A program made the position numbers and the translations under genes. Shown piece after piece: positions 505-37,799 of a stretch of DNA of 38,244 nucleotides. The first letter of the stretch is position 1. Every line of letters begins with the position of its first letter. Source of the stretch: Chiloscyllium plagiosum (Eukaryota). The notes beneath the pieces were generated by a model. The model was not told the origin of the DNA and made no database searches. It saw only the letters and a program-made list of their open reading frames with translations. Where the stretch lies: assembly GCF_004010195.1 (NCBI RefSeq), contig NC_057718.1:90467079-90505322 (forward strand), in the 5' to 3' direction.

Positions 505-726
505 AATTTCCCTGGAGCATCAGAGGCTGAGGGGTGACCCTATAGAGGTTTACAAAATCATGACGGGCATGGATAGGGCAAATAGACAAAGTCTTTTTCC
601 CAGGATAGAAGAGTCAAAAACTGGAGGGGATAGGTTTAGGTGAGAGGGTAAAAATCTAAAAGGGACTTGAGGGGCAACGTTTTCACGCAGTGGGTGGTGC
701 GTGTATGGAACGAACTGCTAATGGAA
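505..726 (+). mobile_element. CR1/HER1 LINE 3' fragment, interrupted; resumes at 1260
   Basis: Encodes an RLRGDPIEVYKIMTGMDR-type CR1 ORF2 C-terminus. Confidence 0.8.
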
Positions 727-1259
727 GTCATAAAGACAGATTCATAGAGATATACAGCATGGAAACAATCCCTTTGGTCCAATACATCCATGCCGAACAC
801 ATATCCCAACCTAATCCAGTCCCATTTACCAGCATTTGGCCCATTTCCCTCTAAACCCTTCCTATTCATGTACCCATCCAGATGCTTTTTAAATGTTGTA
901 ATTGTACCAGCCTCCATCACTTCCTCTGGCAGCTCATTCCATACACGCACCATCCACTGCATGAAAAAGTAGCCCCTTAGGTCCCCTTTTAAATCTTGCC
1001 CCTCTCACCCTAAACCTATATCCTCTAGTTCTCAACTCCCCCACCCCAGGGCTAAGACCTTGTCTATTTATCCTATCCATGCCCTTCATGATGTCAAAAA
1101 CCTCTATAAGGTCACCCCTCAACCTCCGACGCTCCAGGGAAAACAGTCCCAGCCTATTCTCAAATCCTCCAACCCTGGCAACACCCTTGTAAATCTTTTC
1201 TGAACCCTTTCAGGTTTCACAACATCCTTCCGATAGGAAGGAGACCAGAATTGCACACA
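727..1259 (-). mobile_element. CR1/HER1 LINE 3' end inserted in inverted orientation into another copy
   Basis: Minus ORFs CVQFWSPSYRKDVV, RGDLIEVFDIMKGMDR and VWNELPEEVMEAGTITTFKKHLD; ctctatga-type tail. Confidence 0.85.
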
Positions 1260-1430
1260 GGAGACTGGTACAATTACGACATTTAAAAGGCATCTGGATG
1301 GGTCTATAAATAGGAAGGGTACAGAGGGATATGGACCAAATGCTGGCAAATGGGACTAGATCAGCTTAGAATATCTGGTCTGCATGGACGAGTTGGACCG
1401 AAAGGTCTGGTTCCTTGCTGTATGACTCTT
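1260..1430 (+). mobile_element. CR1/HER1 LINE 3' end, continuation of 505-726
   Basis: ggtacaattacgacatttaaaaggcatctggatgg ... ggacgagttggaccgaa ... tatgactct. Confidence 0.8.
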
Positions 1431-1764
1431 TGAATAAACCTGATATCAGTTTTGATTCCGCTATGATAGCTTATTGACCAGGTTATGTTGGTTCCTGAAC
1501 CATTTCAGTTAAGGCTTGATCAATGAGATTGCATGGATTGTCCAGCTCATTCATTTCATTCTAATACTTCTTTCTAATCAGATTATTTATTTTTTGTCCT
1601 TTAAAGATTTTTAGTCCTGCTATATCTAAATGCTGCTTTAATTCCAGCCTTTAAAGGCTTTTCACCTTGCAGTATATTGATGCCACTTTAATCTCTTACC
1701 CAACAATATCTTCCTGTATCAATATAACAACGGTGTTTTCTTTTCCTAATCTGAAAGGCTTTTA

Positions 1765-1990
1765 AACTCTGTAACACCTATCGCCTTCCCAGCTACCTTC
1801 CCTCCAGCCCCACCCGCAACTCCCTATTAATCTCCCAGCTCCCTTCCCCCTCCACATTCCTTCATGAAGGGTTTTTGCCTGAAACACCGACTCTCCTGCT
1901 CCTCGGATGCTGCCTGACCTGCTGTGCTTTTCCAGCGCCACCCTTTTTGACTCTGACTCTCCAGCATCTGTAGGCCTCACTTTCTCCCTG
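1765..1990 (+). mobile_element. Penelope-like terminus with degenerate HHR
   Basis: catgaagggtttttgcctgaaacacc followed by the conserved gatgctgcctgacctgctgtgcttttccagc. Confidence 0.7.
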
Positions 1991-2534
1991 TACCTCTGCA
2001 TTGCTCATATTTCTTTATTCAAAATGAAGGTCTCCCAACTTCTGCAAGCAAAACAGACGATTTTCCACCTTCCACCTTAATACCCAATGCTTGTTCTTGT
2101 CCATGACTTCCCCAAAAAACCCAGGGAATATAGCTTTAATAGCCTTCCTAAACCATCGTTTAATTTACACTTTTACCTCAGCCTCATACTCTCCTTAGTT
2201 ATCACCTTTTTCTATTGGACCCTGCCTGTTTAGTTTTTTTGTATTGCCCCTTTGCCACCTTAATTCTGGTTTTGTGCACTACCAGGGTCATGACCTGGGT
2301 GTAAATTACTTATACGCTCTTTGACTTCCTTAGTGTATTCTTGTCTCGTGTTTTTGCAGTCTGTGATACCACTGCTTGTTGGCAGCTGTAAGTAATCCTT
2401 TTCAATGTCGGAACCCATTCTGTGCCATTAATGTATCATTCTCCCCTTAGGGATTTTCTCTTTACTCAAACTCCCGGTTCTGCACCCCCCTGAAAGCACC
2501 TTCTCTACATCCATAATTAAAAATTAATTCACAC

Positions 2535-3296
2535 TTGCCTTTATTGGTCAGACCATTGAGTATAGGAGTTGGGAGGTCATGTTGTGGCTGTTCAGGACAT
2601 TGGTTAGGCTACTTTTGGAATACAGTGTGCAGTTCTGGTCACCCTGCTATCAGAAGGATGTTATGAAACTTGAAAAGGCTCAGGAAAGGTTTACAAGGAC
2701 ATTGAGTATAGGAGTTGGGAGGTCATGTTGTGGCTGTTCAGGACATTGGTTAGGCTACTTTTGGAATACTGTGTGCAGTTCTGGTCACCCTGCTATCAGA
2801 AGGATGTTGTGAAACTTGAAAAGGCTCAGGAAAGGTTTACAAGGATGTTGCTGGGTTTGGAGGATTTAGGTATGGAGAGAGGCTGAATGTTTACTCTGGA
2901 GAGTCTGGAGGGGTGACCTTAAAGAGGTTTATAAAATCATGAAGGGCATGGATAGGGTAAATAGACAAGCTTTTTTCCTCAGGATAGGAGAGTCCAAAAC
3001 TAGAGGACATAGGTTTAAGGCAGGCAGGGCAAGATTTAAAAGGGACCTAAGGGGCATTGTTTTTATGCAGAGGTTTGTACATGTGTGGAATGAGCTGCCA
3101 GAGGAAGTGGTGGAGGCTGGTACAATTACAGCATTTAAAAGGTTTCTGAATGGGTATATAAATAGGAAGGGTTTAGAGGGATATGGGCCAAATGCTGACA
3201 AATGAGACTCGATCAGTTTAGGATAGCTGGTTGGCATGGACGAGCTGGACCGAAGGGTCTGTTTCTGTGTTGTACACCTCTATGATTCAATGACTG
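2535..3296 (+). mobile_element. CR1/HER1 LINE 3' end with internal 146 bp tandem duplication
   Basis: ORFs LVRLLLEYSVQFWSP and MKGMDRV...WNELPEEVVEAGTITAFK; repeat units start at 2554 and 2700. Confidence 0.85.
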
Positions 3297-5520: not shown

Positions 5521-5797
5521 ATGCAGTCTCCGACGTTAACCCTTTCAGAACTATTCTAATGCACAATGCTGGTGCCACCCTGGGATAGCTCCTTCCTGTT
5601 CTACTCAATGTCCCGCAGAGGCCCCCCCTTCAAAAAGCTCTGTCCCACCCCGCTTCTCTAACACATTGACACCTCCCTGACCCCTGCAGCATAATTGAGT
5701 TTGGGTCCCCAGACCTTGAGGTGGGGTTGGACATCCTGGCCCCTGCGAAACCCAGGAAGTGCAGCAAAGTCCAGATCCACGGCATTTCTTCTTCGGA

Positions 5798-5996
5798 AGG
5801 AGTCAAAATAAATTACTGCAGATGCTGGAATCCAAGGTAGACCAGCAGGAGGCTGGTAGAACACAGCAAGCCAGGCAGCATCAGGAGGTGGCGAAGTCAA
5901 TGTTTCTTGGCAGAAGGATTACACCTGAAATGTCGACTTCTCCACTTCCTGATGCTGCCTGGCTTGCTGTGTTCTCCCAGCCTCCTACCTGTCTAC
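5798..5996. mobile_element. Inverted pair of Penelope-like termini with 15 bp TSD
   Basis: catttcttcttcgga at 5783-5797 and 5997-6011; arms are reverse complements (agcaagccaggcagcatcagga / tcctgatgctgcctggcttgct). Confidence 0.75.
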
Positions 5997-6195
5997 CATT
6001 TCTTCTTCGGAGGCTGTCTGAAGTTCCAGCTGCGGCCACAGCTCCCCAGGGGTCGGGTAGGGGTCAAGAATATGGCTAGACACTGAGTGGGCAGCTCTTA
6101 GATGTAGGATGCCCTCCATAGGGATTGGCACAAGTCTGGTCCTGAAGCAAGCCTGAAAAGCACTGGGGTCACAGCCCAGCCAAGCAGAGGTGGAC

Positions 6196-11537: not shown

Positions 11538-11559
11538 AGATTGGGAGGATCTTGTGAAG

Positions 11560-11795
11560 AGCTGAAAATGTGTTGCTGGAAAAGCACAACAGGTCAGGCA
11601 GCATCCAAGGAACAGGAGAATCGACGTTTCGGGCATAAGCCCTTCTTCAGGAATTTCTTCAGGATTCCTGAAGAAGGGCTTATGCCCGAAACGTCGATTC
11701 TCCTGTTCCTTGGATGCTGCCTGACCTGCTGCGCTTTTCCAGCAACACATTTTTCAGCTCTGATCTCCAGCATCTGCAGACCTCACTTTCTCCTC
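11560..11795. mobile_element. Young inverted pair of Penelope-like termini with 15 bp TSD
   Basis: TSD gaggatcttgtgaag at 11545-11559 and 11796-11810; ~95 bp near-perfect inverted arms at 11560-11654 and 11664-11760. Confidence 0.85.
11662..11701 (+). ncRNA. Minimal type I hammerhead ribozyme motif; mirror copy on the minus strand at about 11617-11654
   Basis: ggattc CTGAAGA A GGGC ttat GCCC GAAA cg TC gattct: conserved core, stem II, palindromic ACGT stem III and imperfect stem I. Confidence 0.7.
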
Positions 11796-11994
11796 GAGGA
11801 TCTTGTGAAGGTACAGCCAACATTTCTCCAGTATGTTGAGGTGCCTACTTTAGATTGTCCAAGTCTCTGAAACATGTAGGAGTGTTGGGGTCATAGCTGA
11901 CCAGTAGACAATGACCTTAATTCTTAAGCCACGAAATTACAGACATGTAAACTCACACATACACCTCAATACATGGCAGGAGGTGAACAGGTAG

Positions 11995-12715: not shown

Positions 12716-13637
12716 TCATAATAATAAAGCCTCGTCTGCAATGGGAGACGGCTCAGGGCAGACCGGTATGAAGAGGAGTTGCTTTGCAGCGAAGTGCATT
12801 ACAAAAGACCTAATGAGAGGTAAAGCATGGCGTAGCACAATGGCAAGGACAAGTAATACTATAGCAGCAACGATTGCAATCTTGGCAAACCAAGCCTCCC
12901 AACTTCTCAAGACGTTGTCTACCCAGTCAAAGAACTGATGACCAGACCCCACATTTTCCTTAATCTCTCTGCTCAGATTCCTCAGCTTATCCATTGCCTT
13001 AGTAAACGACCCCTCAGGACTAGTGTTACTAGGTATGAAGAAGTTCTCCTCCTCTCTGTACAAGGATCTCAGTGCCCACCTGTCAATCTTCCTTCCCACC
13101 TATCCGCTCCCCCCTCCTCTCCGACCTATCACCTTCATCCCCACCTCCATCCACCTATTGCACTCTTAGCTACCTCCTCCCCAGCCCCACCCTCCTCCCA
13201 TTTATCTCTCCACCCTGGAGGTTCCCTGTCTCATTCCTGATGAAGGGCTTTTGCCCGAAGAGTCTATTTTCCTGCTCCTCAGATGCTGCCTGACTTGCTG
13301 TGCTTTTCCAGCACCACCCTAATCTTGACTCTTACTTGGTCTAAAAGGTACAGCAATGTTCCCCAAACATTGCATAGACACCACCATCAGCCAACAGCCA
13401 GTCCAAAACCTGCCTATTTTGCCACACCATTATTCTGGTTGCATCCAACTGCTCACCTAGTGCTGAGATGTCATCATTGGGGTAATTAATAAATCTCTGC
13501 TGGTTATAGTAAAGATAGTTAATCCATTTGGAATTTCTGATCACACCAATGGGCAGGGATCATTGCTTCCCTCTTATTTCTGGCCTTGAAATCACTAGGG
13601 ATGCCCCTTGGCTATCCTATACTATCAATCCGTATTG
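12716..13637 (-). pseudogene. env: Endogenous retrovirus envelope TM subunit (gamma-type env as in fish ERVs), disrupted
   Basis: IDSIG*PRGIPSDFKARN; WINYLYYNQQRFINY; immunosuppressive-domain-like QNRQVLDWLLA; GGVYAMFGEHCCTF|IPSNTSP; hydrophobic TM IAIVAAIVLLVLAIVL. Carries a stop, a frameshift and a PLE insertion. Confidence 0.88.
13041..13344 (+). mobile_element. Penelope-like fragment inserted into env between CCTF and IPSN
   Basis: cctgatgaagggcttttgcccgaag and gatgctgcctgacttgctgtgcttttccagc; removing it restores CCTFIPSN. Confidence 0.8.
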
Positions 13638-21630: not shown

Positions 21631-21795
21631 TGCTGCTACTGAGCATCGGTGGTGGATGTTTATGTATGTGGTGCCAGTCAATCGGGCTGCTTTTCCCAGA
21701 TGATGTGAAGCTTCTTGAGTGTTGTAGGGGCTGCACTCATCCAAGCAAGTGGACCATATTCCATCACACTCCTGACTTGTGCCTGGTAGATGGTG

Positions 21796-22007
21796 TCGAA
21801 GAGTGTGAGTGCTGGAAAAGCAAAGCCGGTCAGGCAGCATCCGAGGAGCAGGAGAGTCAACATTTCGGGCATAAGCTCCTCATCAGGAATTCCTCTTATG
21901 CCCGAAACGTCGACTCTCCTGCTCCTCGGATGCTGCCTGACCTGCTGTGCTTTTCCAGCACCACACTCTTCGACTCTGATCTCCAGCATCTGCGGTCCTC
22001 ACTTCCT
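21796..22007. mobile_element. Inverted pair of Penelope-like termini with ~14 bp TSD
   Basis: cctggtagatggtg at 21782-21795 vs cctggtaggtgatg at 22008-22021; arms are reverse complements. Confidence 0.8.
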
Positions 22008-22119
22008 CCTGGTAGGTGATGGACAGGCTTTGGGAAGTCAGGAGATGGGAGGCCCGCTGCAGGACTCCTAGCCTGTAATTCATGGACCTTTTTGTTGGTC
22101 TCAGCCCGTTAAGCTCTCA

Positions 22120-23065: not shown

Positions 23066-23602
23066 AGGTTAGGGTGGGATGCTCTTCGGAGGTCTGTGCA
23101 GACTCAATGGGCCGAATGGCCTCCTTCCACACTTTAGCAATTCTATGGGGCAGCATGGTAGCTCAGCAGTTAGCAGTGCTGCCTCACAGCATCAGGGACC
23201 AGGTTCAGTTCCAACCTTGAGCAATTGTCTGTGTGGAGTTTGCACATTCTCCCCGTGTCTGCGTGGGTTTCCTCTGGGTGCTCTGTGTTCCTCCCACAGT
23301 CCTGAGATGTGCAATTAAATGGATTGGTCATGCTACATTGCCTACATTGTCTAGGGATGTGCAGGTTAGGTGGATTGGCCATGCTAAATTGCCCACAGTG
23401 TCTAGGGATGTGCAGGTTAGGTGGATTGGCCATGCTAAATTGCCCACAGCGTCTAGGGATGTGCAGGTTAAGTAAGTTAGCCATGGGAGATGCAGGGTTA
23501 CAGGGATAGAGTAGGGGGCTGCTGGGATTGCGTGGGCTGCTCTTTGGAGGGTAGGTGTGGATGAGCTGAATGGCCTGCCTCCACACTGTAGGGATTCTAT
23601 GA
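23066..23602 (+). mobile_element. HE1 SINE tail followed by an HE1 SINE with an internal 51 bp tandem expansion
   Basis: gtctagggatgtgcaggttag... units at 23349, 23400 and 23451. Confidence 0.85.
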
Positions 23603-30204: not shown

Positions 30205-30635
30205 GAAGTCATAGAGTCATAGAGCACGGAAACAGACCCTATGCCGACCAGGTTTCCCAAACTAATCTCGTCCCATTTGCCTGCATTTGGCCCATGACCC
30301 TCTAAACCCTTCCTAGTCATGTACTTGTCCAAAAGTCTTTTCAATGTTGTAACTGTATCTGCATTGACCACTTCCTTTGGCAGTTTATTCCATATACACA
30401 CCGGCCTCTATGTGAAAAAGTTGCCCTTTAGGTCCCTTTTAAATTTCACCCCTTCCACTTTAAAACAATGCCCTCTAGTTTTTAATCCTCCTACCTTGGG
30501 AAAGACCTTTGCTATTCACCTTATCTATACTGCTCCTTGTAAACCTTTCCCAATTTAACTATATCCTTCCTTTAGCAGGGTAACCAGAACTGTATACAGT
30601 GCTCCAAACGTGGCCTCACCAATGTCCTATACAAC
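30205..30635 (-). mobile_element. HER1 LINE 3' fragments
   Basis: WNKLPKEVVNADTVTTLKRLLDKYM. Confidence 0.8.
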
Positions 30636-30856
30636 CCAATGAAGAATGGGAAAATAGAATATGAATGCAAACAGGTGAGTAACATAATGTCAGACTGTAA
30701 AAGCTTCTGAAAGTAGGTGAAAGGGGGAAGATTAACTCAGAGAAATGTGGGCTGATTATAAGCGGGGACAGGAAAATGTATAATTCCGAACAGAAATTAA
30801 ACTGTTACTTTGAGACTGTCTTCATCACAGAAGAAGATACTCTACTAGAAATACTG

Positions 30857-30942
30857 GATTAGTGGTGCTGGAAGAGCACAGCAGTTCAGGCAGCATCCAA
30901 GGATTTTTGAAATCGACGTTTCGGGCAAAAGCCCTTCATCAC
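30857..30942 (-). mobile_element. 86 bp Penelope-like/HHR unit with 10 bp TSD
   Basis: agaaatactg at 30847-30856 and 30943-30952; the empty site is preserved in the other arm of the palindrome. Confidence 0.85.
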
Positions 30943-31138
30943 AGAAATACTGAACAACCAAATGGCATGAGGATCTGAGGAACCAAAAATAAGCCTGTAT
31001 TAGTAAGTCTTAGATTTAGAGGTCTTAACTGAAAAGTTACCAAAAGAGAAAATGTTGGAAAATCTCAGCAGGTCTGACAGCATCTGTAAGGAGAGAAAAG
31101 AGCTGACGTTTCGAGTCTAACTAACCCTTTGTCAGACT

Positions 31139-31177
31139 AGTTTTGACAAAGGGTCAGTTAGACTCGAAATGTCAGCT
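31139..31177 (+). ncRNA. Minimal hammerhead motif, U3/A8 core variant
   Basis: agtt TTGACAA A GGGTC agtta GACTC GAAA tg TC agct. Confidence 0.55.
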
Positions 31178-33114
31178 CTTTTCTCTCCTTACAGATGCTG
31201 CCAGACCTGCTGAGATTTTCCAACATTTTCTCTTTTTGTAACTTTTCAATTAAGACCTCTAAATCTAAGACTTACTAATACAGGCTTATTTTTGGTTCCT
31301 CAGATCCTCATGCCATTTGGTTGTTCAGTATTTCTAGTAGAGTATCTTCTTCTGTGATGAAGACAGTCTCAACGTAACAGTTTAATTTCTGTTCGGAATT
31401 ATACATTTCCCTGTCCCTGCTTAGAAGTCAGTAATAGAGGAAATGTTAGAATTCATTAAAAAGGATGAGATCACTGAATATTTAGCAAAGAATTGTAAAA
31501 CTGGGGAGAGTCAGCATATACTTGTGGGAGGGAAATAATGTTTGACAAATATGTTGGAGTTTTTGAGGATATTACTTGTAGTATTACTAAAGGATAACCA
31601 ATGGATGCAGTCAATATGTATTTTCAGAAGACTTTTGCTAAGGTCCCACACAGATAGTGAGTGAATACAATTAGAGAGCAGAAGATTGTGGGGGAATATA
31701 TGAGAATAGATTGAGATTTGGTTAACAGACAGACAGTAAGCAGAGATTAAGGATAAACATTCTCACTCTCAGGATGGCAGGTTTTTATGACTGAGATACC
31801 ATAAGGATCAGTGCTAAGTCCACCATTGATCTCAATCTATATCAATAGGAGCATAGGCCATTCAGCCCCTTGAGCCAATTCGGCCATTCAATGAGATCAT
31901 AGCTGATACATGACTTAGCTCCTTTTACCTGCCTTGGGCCCATATCCCTTAACACCTTTGCTTAATAACAACCCTACTTGCCTCAGATTTAAAACTCACA
32001 ACTGATCTCAATGACCTGGATAGGTGGATGAATTGTAACATTCCCAAATTTGCCGATGACACCAAACTGGATGGGAAAGTAAATTGTGAGAAGCCTTCTA
32101 GGGGACTTGGGCAGCCGAAGTGAATGGGCTAAAATAAGGCAGATGGAATATAATCTCAATAAGTGTGAAGTTATTCACTTTGGTCAAGAAAATAATCAGA
32201 AAATGATAATATTTCTTAAGTGGTGAGAGGTTGGGAAACATTGATAGCCAAAGGGAACTGGATGTTCTTGTTTATGAATCACTAAAAATTGGCAATTGGG
32301 AAGGCAAAATATTATGTTGATTATCATCGCAAAGCAATTTAATTACAGGAGTAAAGTTGATTTGTTGCAGCTGAATACAGCTTTGGTGAGACCTCACCTA
32401 GGATGTTGCATACAATTTTGATATTATCTAAGGAGGGATATACTTACTATAGAAGGAATGCAACAGAGGATTACCAGATTAATCCCTGGGATGGTGAAAT
32501 GTTTTTCTGATGCTAAATTGAGGTGACTGAGTCTGTATCCTTAGAGTTTCAAAGACTGAGGGTGACTTAATTGAAACTTACAAAGTATGTCAGGGTGGAT
32601 ATACTGACATATACTTCCCCTGCTAATGATGCTAAAACCAAGGGACAAAATCCCAGGGTACGAGAGTTAAAACTGAGATGGTGAGGAATTTGTTCTCCTC
32701 AGAGACAGGTGAATCTGTGGAATTCCCTACCCCTCATGGCTAAGGGAGATTAATCATTGAGCAGGTTCAAACAGAAATTGACAGTTTCTTGAGGACTGGT
32801 GATATCAAGGGAGATGGAAATAGTACAAGACAGCGACATTGACATTGGTGATCAGCCATGACCTGACTGAATGACAGAGAAGGTTTGATGGGCTGAATGG
32901 TATACTCCTGTTCCTAATCCCAAAGGACCCCCCTGGAAGTGTATAGCAACCAACATGGAGATTAATACTAGTCTGAATTCTGTCATGGTGACAATGGGAC
33001 AGATGGAAGGTTTGAAGACCAAGGCAGTTGCCTCACCTCTCTCCCAATGACTGACCTGAATCTAGACCTTCTCAGCTGGCAGGAGGGAATTAGAACAACA
33101 GCACAGAAAGAGCA

Positions 33115-34065
33115 TGCACAACATATGTTAATGACTTGGATGAGGGAACAGAAAGTAACATCTCAAAGTCTGCAGATGATACCAAGTTGGGTGAAGATGG
33201 TGAACCATGACGAGGATGCAGAGATCCTTCAGCATGATCTGGACAGGTTGGGCTGAGTGGGCAAATCAATGGCAGATGCAGTATCATTTGGATAAATATG
33301 AGGTTATTCACTTTGAAAGCAAAAACAGGAAAGCAGGAAACAGGAAAGCAAGAAACAGGAAAAACAGGATATTACCTGTACATTGGCAGAAGGGAGTGTG
33401 CAGTGGGACCTGGGTGTCCTTGTGCACCAGTCGCTGAAGGTAAGCAGGTGCAGCAGGTCTAAAGAAGGGAAGTGGTATTTTGGCCTTCGTTGAGTTTTGA
33501 GTACAGGAGCAGGGATGAGTTGTTGCAGTTATGCAGGACCTCGGTGAGACCACCCCGAATTGTGTGCAGTTTTGATCTCCTGTTCTGAGGAAGGATACTC
33601 TTGCTCTCGAGGGAGTGCAGTAAAGATTTACCAGGCTGATTCTGGGGATGGTGGGACTGACGTGTGAGGAGAGATTGACTGGGTGAGGATTGTTTCCACT
33701 GGAGTTCAGGTAAGTGAAAGGGCATCTCATAGAGACTTATAAAATTCTAACAGGACTAGACAGGGTAGATGCAGGGACGATATTCCCAGTGGGGTGTGTG
33801 TCCTAAACCAGAGGTCAAAGTCTGAGGATTAGGGGTAGACCATTAAGGATGGCGATGAGGAAACATTTCTTCACCCAAAGAGTGGTGAGCCTGTGGAATT
33901 CATTACCACAGGAAGGAGTTGATGTCAAAACATTGAATGTATTCAAGATGCGGCTAGATATAGCACTTGGGGCAAATCGGGTCAAAGGTTATGGAGAGAA
34001 AGCAGGATTAGGCAGAGCAGGGCCAAATGGCCAAATGGCATCCTCCTGCTCCTATCTTCTATGTT
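33115..34065 (+). mobile_element. CR1 LINE RT C-terminal half to 3' end
   Basis: ADDTKLG; WANQWQMQY..DKYEVIHF; RKHFFTQRVVSLWNSLP. Confidence 0.85.
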
Positions 34066-34752: not shown

Positions 34753-34789
34753 GTTCCACCTGCCTCTGGAAATAGGGGCCTGTGGTACA

Positions 34790-36338
34790 GTGTGGGACTG
34801 CCATAGTGTTAAGGGTTTTGATGGAGAGGAATTTGTTAGGTGTGTACAAGAAAATGTTCTGATTCAGTACGTGGATGTATCTACTAGAGAAGGTGCAAAA
34901 CTTGACCTACTCTTGGAAAATAAGGCTGGGAAGGTGACTGAGGTGCCAGTAGGGAAGCACTTTGGGGTCAGCGACCATAATTCTATTAGTTCTAAAATAG
35001 TGATGGAAAAGGATAGATCTGTTCTAAATTGGAGGAAGGCTAATTTTGACGGCATTAAGCAAGAACTTTCAAAAGCTGATTGGTGGCAAATGTTTGCAGG
35101 TAAAGGGACGGCTGGAAAATGGGAAGCCTTCAGAAATGAGATAACAAGAGTTCAGAGACAGTATATTCCTGCTAGGGTGAAAGGGAAGGCTGGTAGGTGT
35201 AGGGAATGTTGGATGATGAGAGAAATTGAGGCTTTGGTTCAGAAAAAGGAAGAAGCATATGTAAGGTATAGACAGGATAGATCGAGTGAATCCTTAGAAG
35301 AGTATAAAGAAAGTAGGAATATACTGAAGAAGGAAATCAGGAGGGCAAAGCAGGGGACATGAGATAGCTTTGGCAAACAAGGTTAAGGAGAATCCAAAGG
35401 GATTTCATAAATATGTTAAGGACAAAAGGGTAACTAGGGAGAGAATAGGGCCTCTCAAAGAAGGGCTTATGCCCAAAACGTCAATTCTCCTGTTCCCTGG
35501 ATGCTGCCTGACCTGCTGCGCTTTTCCAGCAACACATTTTCACCTCTCAAAGATCAGCAAAGCAGCCTATGTGTGGAACCGCATTAGATGGGGGGATATA
35601 CTAAACAGGTATTTTGCATCAGTATTTACTGTGAAGAAGGACATGGAAGATATAGAATGTAGGGAAATAGATGGCGATCCAGTGACATCTTGAAAAATGT
35701 CTATATTACAGAGGAGGAGGTGCTGGATGTGTTGAAATGCATCACAATAGATACACCCTCAGGACCTGATCAGGTGTACCCGAGAACTCTGTGGGAAGCT
35801 AGGGAAGTGATTGCTGGGCGTCTTGCTGAGATATTTGTATCATGGATAGTCACAAGTGAGGTGCCGGAAGATTGGAGGTTGGCTAATGTGGTGCCACTAT
35901 TTAAGAAGGGCAGTAAGAAAGAGCCAGGGAACTATAGACAGGTGAGCCTGACATCGGTGGTGGGCAAGTTGTTAGAGCAAATCCTGAGGGACAGAATGTT
36001 CATTTATTTGAAAAGGCAAGGATTGATTAGGGATTGTCTACATGGCTTTGTGCATGGGAAATCATGTCTCACAACTTGATTGAGTTTTTTAAAGAAGTAA
36101 CAAAGAGGATTGATGAGGGCAGAGTAGTAGAGATGATCTATATGGACTTCAGTAAGGTGTTTGGCAAGGTTCCTCATGGGAGACTGGTTAGCAAGGTTAG
36201 ATCTCACGGATTACAGGGAGAACTAACCATTTGGATACAGAACTGGCTTGAAGGTAGAAGACAGAGGGTAGCTTTTCAGACTGGAGGCTAGTGGTGTGTA
36301 ACAAGGATCTGTGCTGTACATCGCTCTGACTCTATGAT
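34790..36338 (+). mobile_element. HER1/CR1 ORF2 (endonuclease end to RT) joined by a deletion to its 3' tail
   Basis: TREGAKLDLLL...SDHNSI; DWRLANVVPLFKKG...NYRQVSLTSVVGKLLE; YMDFSKVFGKVPH. Confidence 0.9.
35461..35542 (+). mobile_element. ~82 bp Penelope-like unit with 10-11 bp TSD inside CR1
   Basis: cctctcaaaga at 35451-35461 and 35543-35553. Confidence 0.85.
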
Positions 36339-37286: not shown

Positions 37287-37421
37287 GGTGAAGTTTCCAC
37301 AAGGCGGTTGCCAGGATGGGCTGATTGAGAGTAACCGGACCCTCCAAAAATGCCGTGGGGCCCCCTGCACAAGTGAGCTGGGTAACAAAACCTCTGCCTT
37401 CTCTGCTGCCCCAAAGCTTGC

Positions 37422-37712
37422 CTAGGTGTGTGTGTGTGTGTCTCTAGGTGTGTGTGTGTGTCTCTAGGTGTGTGCGTGTGTCTCTAGGTGTGTATATGTG
37501 TCTAGGTGTGTGTGTGTGTGTATATGTCTACGTGTGTGTATATGTACGTGTGTGTGTATATGTCTCTAGGTGTGTATGATTGTGTGTGTATATGTCTACG
37601 TGTGTGTATATGTCTCTAGGTGTGTATGATTGTGTGTGTATATGTCTACGTGTGTGTATATGTCTCTAGATGTGTGTGTGTCTCTAGGTGTGTATGATTG
37701 TGTGTTTGTGTG
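37422..37712. repeat. Compound TG micro/minisatellite
   Basis: Recurrent tctaggtgtgtg and tgtgtatatgtc units. Confidence 0.9.
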
Positions 37713-37799
37713 ACCCAGACTGTGCAGACACCCCCCCACCCCCCCCTCCCACACACACACACAGTGCCATGAAGGAGGGACTGTGAGGGTGATAATGTA

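Follow-up and report, generated by a model that had tools for sequence, protein, structure and literature searches.

Insertions of PLE retroelements usually carry head-to-head copies that meet in a palindromic junction, optionally with a tail on one arm, and are bounded by a TSD, as described in the available parts of two reports (PMC3846280; PMC8557442), the second of which treats the origin of these inverted structures as still debated. In the available text of PMC11167929, both DNA strands are cut and extended by a purified PLE protein, which initiates at two tail-bounding sites. The minimal hammerheads of PLEs are known to include a U3-A8 core variant and to occur as dual motifs on opposite strands, and such motifs are reported in the relevant part of PMC4209133 to be weakly active, as dimers.

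Type 3-2-1-4 and its mirror case together make up 31% of human-chimp template-switch events in the portion of PMC5453318 that reports them; such events have a mean length of 11.6 bp and a maximum of 318 bp in the available text of a further study (bioRxiv 10.1101/2021.11.26.470150). L1 fold-back duplications are put at ~0.3-0.4% of cases in an excerpt of PMC10191854, L1 induction is said to yield fold-back junctions in one of PMC11702581, and snap-back synthesis in microhomology end joining is a related idea (PMC5728401; PMC2943611).

Here we describe a PLE pair whose symmetry continues into the host DNA, in a window of 38,244 nucleotides (the whole stretch analysed; contig NC_057718.1, positions 90,467,079 to 90,505,322) of Chiloscyllium plagiosum, species A below. 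Contigs were compared from four of 24 public runs, X1 from species A, X5 from a relative B, and X9 and X11 from a relative C. No description of PLE pair symmetry extending into a host flank was found in the literature, mostly that outside subscription papers and supplements. Each ingredient is already known, and earlier work describes inverted pairs as a feature of PLEs.

A palindrome centred on a head-to-head PLE pair

Two stumps lie head to head, the left at 31041..31138 (minus strand, ~98 bp) and the right at 31139..31237 (plus strand), neither with a tail. Both are 5'-truncated copies with a palindrome at their junction, each arm's stump (~98 bp) starts at a minimal type I hammerhead motif, and this motif lies inside the repeat, as in described PLE insertions. 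The one-arm tail of 30-40 bp, optional in the literature, is absent from the focal pair. The focal ends also carry no TSD, their best matches being 7-9 nt with a mismatch, just as a preliminary description of this DNA had stated. A motif scan found no open reading frame with RT and GIY-YIG within the window, so the PLE label rests on structural hallmarks.

That description had also named the stumps as two ~98 bp PLE/hammerhead termini; the pair is confirmed, and the ribozyme part holds as motif anatomy, that is, as a putative hammerhead. The right stump has the minimal type I motif with the U3-A8 core variant, while the core of the left is degraded (C3 with A8, 5' strand of stem I disrupted), and both copies carry lesions. 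When 13 stumps of the window are aligned, 98% of cells are paired in stem II and 79.7% over the named hammerhead structure, whereas slid partners give 20-42%; covariation does not stand out clearly from shuffles (27/500). No hammerhead family is represented in the 21 matches to Rfam at E<=1, which are only sub-threshold microRNA hairpins that match because of the palindromes. Folded singly, the arms have minimum-energy structures that contain stem II and lack the active core; with DNA parameters, the 197-nt core has a folding energy of -105.9 kcal/mol. The stumps at 11654/11664, 17781, 21890, 26584, 30942 and 35458 start a few bases upstream of the core, and not at the cleavage site.

The left arm of the palindrome (30756-30846 plus 30943-31138) mirrors the right arm (31426-31139) with 10 substitutions in 287 aligned bases (96.5% identity) and gaps of 1 nt at the centre and 1 nt at the outer end. 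An outermost 4-nt match pairs 30752-30755 with 31431-31428, and the mirror-image stretch spans ~680 bases in all. Its centre of symmetry is an 11-nt, slightly decayed segment (31134..31144), three letters longer than that of the same PLE family at other loci among the contig pieces listed. The symmetry previously proposed to run into the host CR1 (31238-31431 against 30752-31040) is real and amounts to 190-194 bp when the insert described next is left out.

This insert (30847..30942, minus strand) is found in the left arm only. It is a 96-bp unit made up of an 86-bp hammerhead-headed stump of another PLE family and a 10-bp TSD (30847-30856 / 30943-30952). In C (X9 record 24) and in B (X5 record 17) the empty site is joined across; thus the insertion is late.

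We considered whether the palindrome could be an artefact of assembly or of a chimeric read, as assemblies are troubled by inverted PLE structures in the part of PMC8557442 concerned. If two real arms exist, the 31-mer structure of the window should yield one contig specific to the left arm, with its end at 30803, and another specific to the right arm, with its start at 31379, and the X1 contigs of species A branch in this way: record 1 covers 30603-30803, record 8 covers 31379-31950 and bridges the right junction, both with 0 differences, and record 7 (31208-31408) is common to both arms. The depth ratio of the X1 arms is 1.48, against an expected 1.57 without the 96-bp insert and less with it. 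X1 may be the very sample behind the window, which leaves some room for an artefact; its contigs nevertheless stem from a separate assembly step. The preliminary description had argued against an artefact from arm divergence and a private insert, and the 10 differing sites and the TSD-flanked 96-bp insert are indeed there. The palindrome is genuine and the artefact reading, which we hold to be extremely improbable, is largely refuted.

Three further head-to-head pairs lie in the window, at 5836-5997 (wider span 5783-6013, TSD of 17 nt), 11558-11761 (11545-11810, 15 nt) and 21795-21974 (21782-22018, 11 nt). All three have a TSD (two with one mismatch) and a tail of 33-36 nt on one arm, and none shows flank symmetry: in the 40 nt past the element ends, 7, 8 and 8 positions are symmetric, as against 39 of 40 at the focal pair. 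The pair at 21.8 kb has an asymmetric centre, because its right arm is missing the hammerhead core. Contigs from other loci span a same-family head-to-head centre in A, B and C, several with shorter left arms, which indicates that such pairs are common. Flank-capturing symmetry is thus found in one of the four pairs of the window, the one that was chosen for showing it.

The head-to-head pattern was also sought elsewhere. In metagenomes it gave 18 loci that resemble bacterial terminators, none of the 18 with a blastn match to the window, and a scan of prokaryote genomes and viral contigs found none.

Host CR1 and the size of the replaced segment

The flanks belong to one decayed CR1. Its ORF2 is recognized on the left at 30640..31040 (plus strand) by tblastn and frameshift-aware alignment to CR1 proteins, and the final two bases of this flank (31039-31040) could be part of the element according to the loose-end consensus of contigs. 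The template of the inverted copy is 30752..31040 (plus strand; 190-194 bp without the insert), and the copy occupies 31238..31427 (minus strand), where 190 bp stand in place of ~206-209 nt of CR1. On the right, CR1 protein alignment places the resumed ORF2 at 31428..32800 (plus strand). As the preliminary description had it, CR1 returns at the SV.GKML motif through a tcag: the window's SVIEEMLE at 31428 aligns to SVVGKLLE of CR1 ORF2 proteins. The return junction (31419..31431) has TCAG microhomology at 31428-31431 inside a 12-13-nt imperfect match, and its breakpoint is approximate. A short high-copy repeat on the minus strand (31850-32000) breaks the host CR1 further on.

Since no host-subfamily copy spanning the lost segment is present in the window, the loss was sized from proteins only, and the age and own indels of the host CR1 leave ~15 nt of doubt. 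The best frameshift-aware local alignment to P0076 and P0090, the references whose linker was judged by eye to be closest to the host's, gives 206 nt missing; forcing the same alignments to the flank end gives 194-218 nt. Across the top 30 of 74 CR1 proteins the forced alignments have a median of 207.5 nt, with two outliers at 137, and a no-indel hand count from the conserved LN motif gives 209 nt. Thirteen of the top 30 proteins gave local estimates of 101-116 nt, which were set aside, as those alignments stop near 30840, ~100 nt before the flank end. The gap had earlier been put at about 65 codons from PGPD to VSLT; this motif spacing stands, with 66 residues from SPGPD to VSLT in 15 of the 16 reference proteins that have both motifs, but the left flank ends several residues before SPGPD. 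The CR1 that had served as the earlier ruler (about 34780-36300) is younger and of another subfamily than the host; it contains a solitary stump at 35458-35550.

The copy is 0.87-0.98 of the lost CR1 in length (best 0.91-0.92), and the loss exceeds it by ~16-19 nt (range +4 to +28). The overwritten segment probably also included a tail and TSD, which total 44-53 nt in the neighbouring pairs; if so, ~250-260 nt were replaced by 190, an excess of 60-70 nt. The similar size of copy and loss is real, the two agreeing within about 10%. Equal size, as first claimed, is not supported (190 nt against ~206-209 nt missing, 194-218).

An overwrite in register and of equal length, whether by quasi-palindrome correction or by conversion running past the pair and returning at the mirror position, would account for this closeness, and the host CR1, with indels of its own, could have been shorter before the event than the references are. 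Even so, the best estimates leave the 16-19 nt over (60-70 nt with tail and TSD), the replaced CR1 has no inverted homology beyond a few bases, and the microhomology fixes the return point. We regard such an overwrite as very improbable. The classical form of quasi-palindrome correction, with a prior near-perfect inverted repeat and with length kept, does not describe this locus. What is found instead is a reverse complement of upstream sequence standing in for downstream sequence, as in a type 3-2-1-4 template switch, and a short-loop inverted repeat at the centre with an exit microhomology, as in a fold-back inversion. Of the mechanism proposed in the preliminary description, a fold-back or template switch nucleated by the inverted pair thus fits the sequence, the microhomology and the flank loss, but in-register quasi-palindrome correction is not supported, given a replaced CR1 lacking inverted homology and a loss longer than the copy by ~16-19 nt or more. 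We consider hairpin-primed fold-back synthesis with microhomology rejoining to be the probable origin with good confidence.

Several other features were noted in the window. Fragments of CR1 3' ends at 507-3288, in opposite orientations and with ~80% identity, look like separate insertions and not like a duplication. A 51-bp tandem duplication lies within a SINE-like repeat (23352-23457), a short imperfect tandem within a CR1 (33330-33365), and a long, GT-rich compound microsatellite at 37409-37727. The 127-aa open frame at 12716-13099 (minus strand), with a long hydrophobic stretch followed by a short tail, is presumably similar, judged by eye, to an envelope-type membrane-anchor end. Among the proteins compared, P0006 and P0161 are CR1-type sequences that carry bacterial names; they probably derive from host DNA included in assemblies of bacteria.

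Related species and the order of events

The left side of the locus diverges from A by ~4.3% in B and ~3.4% in C. A contig of C (X9 record 24) runs unbroken over 30534-30846 and then 30943-31065, including the first 25 bp of the PLE; one of B (X5 record 17) covers the same span unbranched, and one from another study of C (X11 record 9) also crosses the arm boundary. The left PLE junction is present in all three species, and thus the PLE predates their split. Moreover, the contigs of B and C are unbroken where those of A break, and so show no second copy of the flank; for two arms at 3-4% divergence, the probability of having no common 31-mer in 190 bp is 0.003-0.019. The contigs of the relatives therefore lean towards growth of the palindrome after insertion. 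A copy that formed early and was then lost from B and C would, on the other hand, leave equally unbranched contigs, and in neither species does a listed contig of this locus reach across the palindrome centre, the junction at the right PLE end or the point where CR1 resumes.

We assign about an even chance to growth after insertion, post-split in the lineage of A; the weights on these readings of the timing are judgements and were not computed. Besides the contigs, which in B and C cross the arm boundary unbranched, the three neighbouring pairs all keep TSD and tail with no flank symmetry. Between the arms, the PLE part has differences at 5 of 97 sites and the flank part at 5 of 188, the direction expected of a two-step history, although the gap is not significant (Fisher p ~0.3). 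A precedent exists in yeast, where resection, hairpin formation, flap trimming and extension, with long stems favoured, are described in the available part of PMC7467729. Weighing against growth after insertion, the ancestral right side is unseen in the listed contigs of B and C, an early copy followed by loss would look alike, and a pair in the ancestor, in preference to a single stump, is an assumption of the reading. The changes in the flank, furthermore, fall mostly in the right arm (3-4 sites), and the left arm differs from C at one position in ~187 bp among the sites listed; under a uniform clock, at least 4 changes have a probability of 0.12-0.56 for an old copy and of 0.02-0.12 for a post-split one. 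X5 record 17 also has 1.3-1.5x the depth of the other contigs of its run, like the collapsed arms in X1 (1.48), depth being a poor measure of copy number.

Alternatively, the fold-back could have taken place during integration, a reading that we hold tentatively and rate as somewhat unlikely. Here, a nick-primed cDNA with no tail would have folded back on its self-complementary 3' end, second-strand synthesis would have run through the cDNA and 190 nt of flank and joined the resected side at TCAG, and B and C would have lost the right copy later because a long no-spacer palindrome is unstable. In favour of this reading, both arms end at the same base and neither has a tail, and the number of changes in the right arm is what an old copy would be expected to have. 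Self-priming of PLEs at palindromic junctions is proposed in a part of PMC3846280, and L1 fold-back duplications of 52-220 bp of target DNA are given in the available text of PMC10191854 for 3-4 of ~1,200 events (a total inferred from percentages). However, it requires that the whole right copy was lost, with the left intact to 31065, in both B and C, and the PLE arms are somewhat more diverged than the flank arms, a difference that is not significant.

The ancestor could also have had a single left stump, whose short palindromic 5' end would later have folded back once and so given rise to the entire right arm, PLE and flank together. B and C show the left junction to 31065 only, the arm ends are identical, and the centre is three letters longer than the common form, all of which would fit. 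Departures from the family consensus that are specific to the left arm nevertheless number 3 in the PLE part and at most 1 in the flank, and head-to-head pairs with the same centre are common as insertions. We thus judge a single ancestral stump improbable.

No shared-derived sites between the arms that could date the copy are visible in the contig comparison. No reads cover positions 31664, 31668, 31747, 31767 and 31798 in X9 and X11, which have no right-flank piece among the longest listed, and X5 has no pieces between 31420 and 31605. These sites could reflect right-side deletions in B and C, which would favour early formation, or filtering, or records outside the comparison (~14-15% of those of X5 and X9), and were given no weight as evidence. 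Bin depths of X9 and X11 suggested that the right flank starts near 31431, a reading that was dropped, as other CR1 copies add depth there.

Under growth after insertion, the order of events could be as follows. A pair of ~98-bp head-to-head stumps entered an old CR1 before A, B and C split, as the left junction dates it, and its original form would probably have been that of the three neighbours, which have a TSD and a tail on one side. The top strand may then have become exposed in the lineage of A when a break occurred, or a fork stalled, at the pair or immediately to its right. The stumps could then have paired into a 98-bp hairpin, and the unpaired 3' flap, with the tail, the TSD and some CR1, would have been trimmed; we infer this single-stranded hairpin as the intermediate. 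A polymerase would have extended the hairpin 190 nt along its own left flank, after which the new end may have come off the template and paired at TCAG with the resected flank on the right, with ~206-209 nt of CR1 removed. The hammerhead would have had no catalytic part in this, its self-complementary stem I only setting the centre. The product present in the window is an inverted duplication with a deletion, of type 3-2-1-4. Finally, the 96-bp stump of another PLE family entered the left arm only.

Comparison with known systems

The class of repair accident is known, and the locus represents one event in decayed repeat DNA with no evident function. It is nevertheless a datable record, in which data from relatives can order the steps. 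We raise, as an unlikely but consequential generalization, that head-to-head PLE stumps, dispersed over shark genomes, act as zero-spacer palindromes that are recurrent fragile sites long after insertion and capture their flanks by hairpin-primed synthesis. If this were true, a dead retroelement would go on making local inverted duplications and deletions genome-wide, with lengthening palindromes. A genome-wide comparison of pairs across these close species would tell whether flanks are captured as PLEs integrate or when palindromes are repaired later, and would yield the rate at which zero-spacer 100-bp palindromes mutate naturally in a vertebrate germline.

In its stumps, junction palindrome and minimal hammerhead the focal locus is like the PLE inverted-copy insertions described in the available parts of PMC3846280, PMC8557442 and PMC11167929, and the neighbouring pairs of the window are also like them in tail and TSD. 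It differs from the usual insertions in having neither tail nor TSD, in its symmetry reaching 190 bp into the host, and in the loss of ~206-209 nt of target. The hammerheads resemble those of PLE pseudo-LTRs, as far as the consulted part of PMC4209133 describes them, in the core, the extra nucleotide after position 9, the palindromic 15.2-16.2, the U3-A8 pair and the dual motifs on opposite strands, whereas both focal copies are lesioned and are known here by sequence.

As in 3-2-1-4 template switches (PMC5453318; bioRxiv 10.1101/2021.11.26.470150), downstream sequence is replaced by the upstream reverse complement and an inverted repeat results; those events, in the available text, are mostly ~10 bp and are argued to be inter-strand, whereas the focal one measures 190-290 bp and has a retroelement pair at its centre. 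Yeast hairpin-mediated fold-back inversions, in the available part of PMC7467729, share a short-loop inverted repeat as the likely primer, flap trimming and extension, but they become gross rearrangements, while synthesis here stopped at 190 nt and was rejoined locally. Somatic L1 fold-back duplications (PMC10191854; PMC11702581, each in the part available) are likewise retroelement-linked inverted duplications of target DNA, of 52-220 bp. They lie 5' upstream of the L1 target site and are made at integration, whereas the focal copy adjoins the PLE 3' end, belongs to another element, is germline-fixed and may postdate the insertion.
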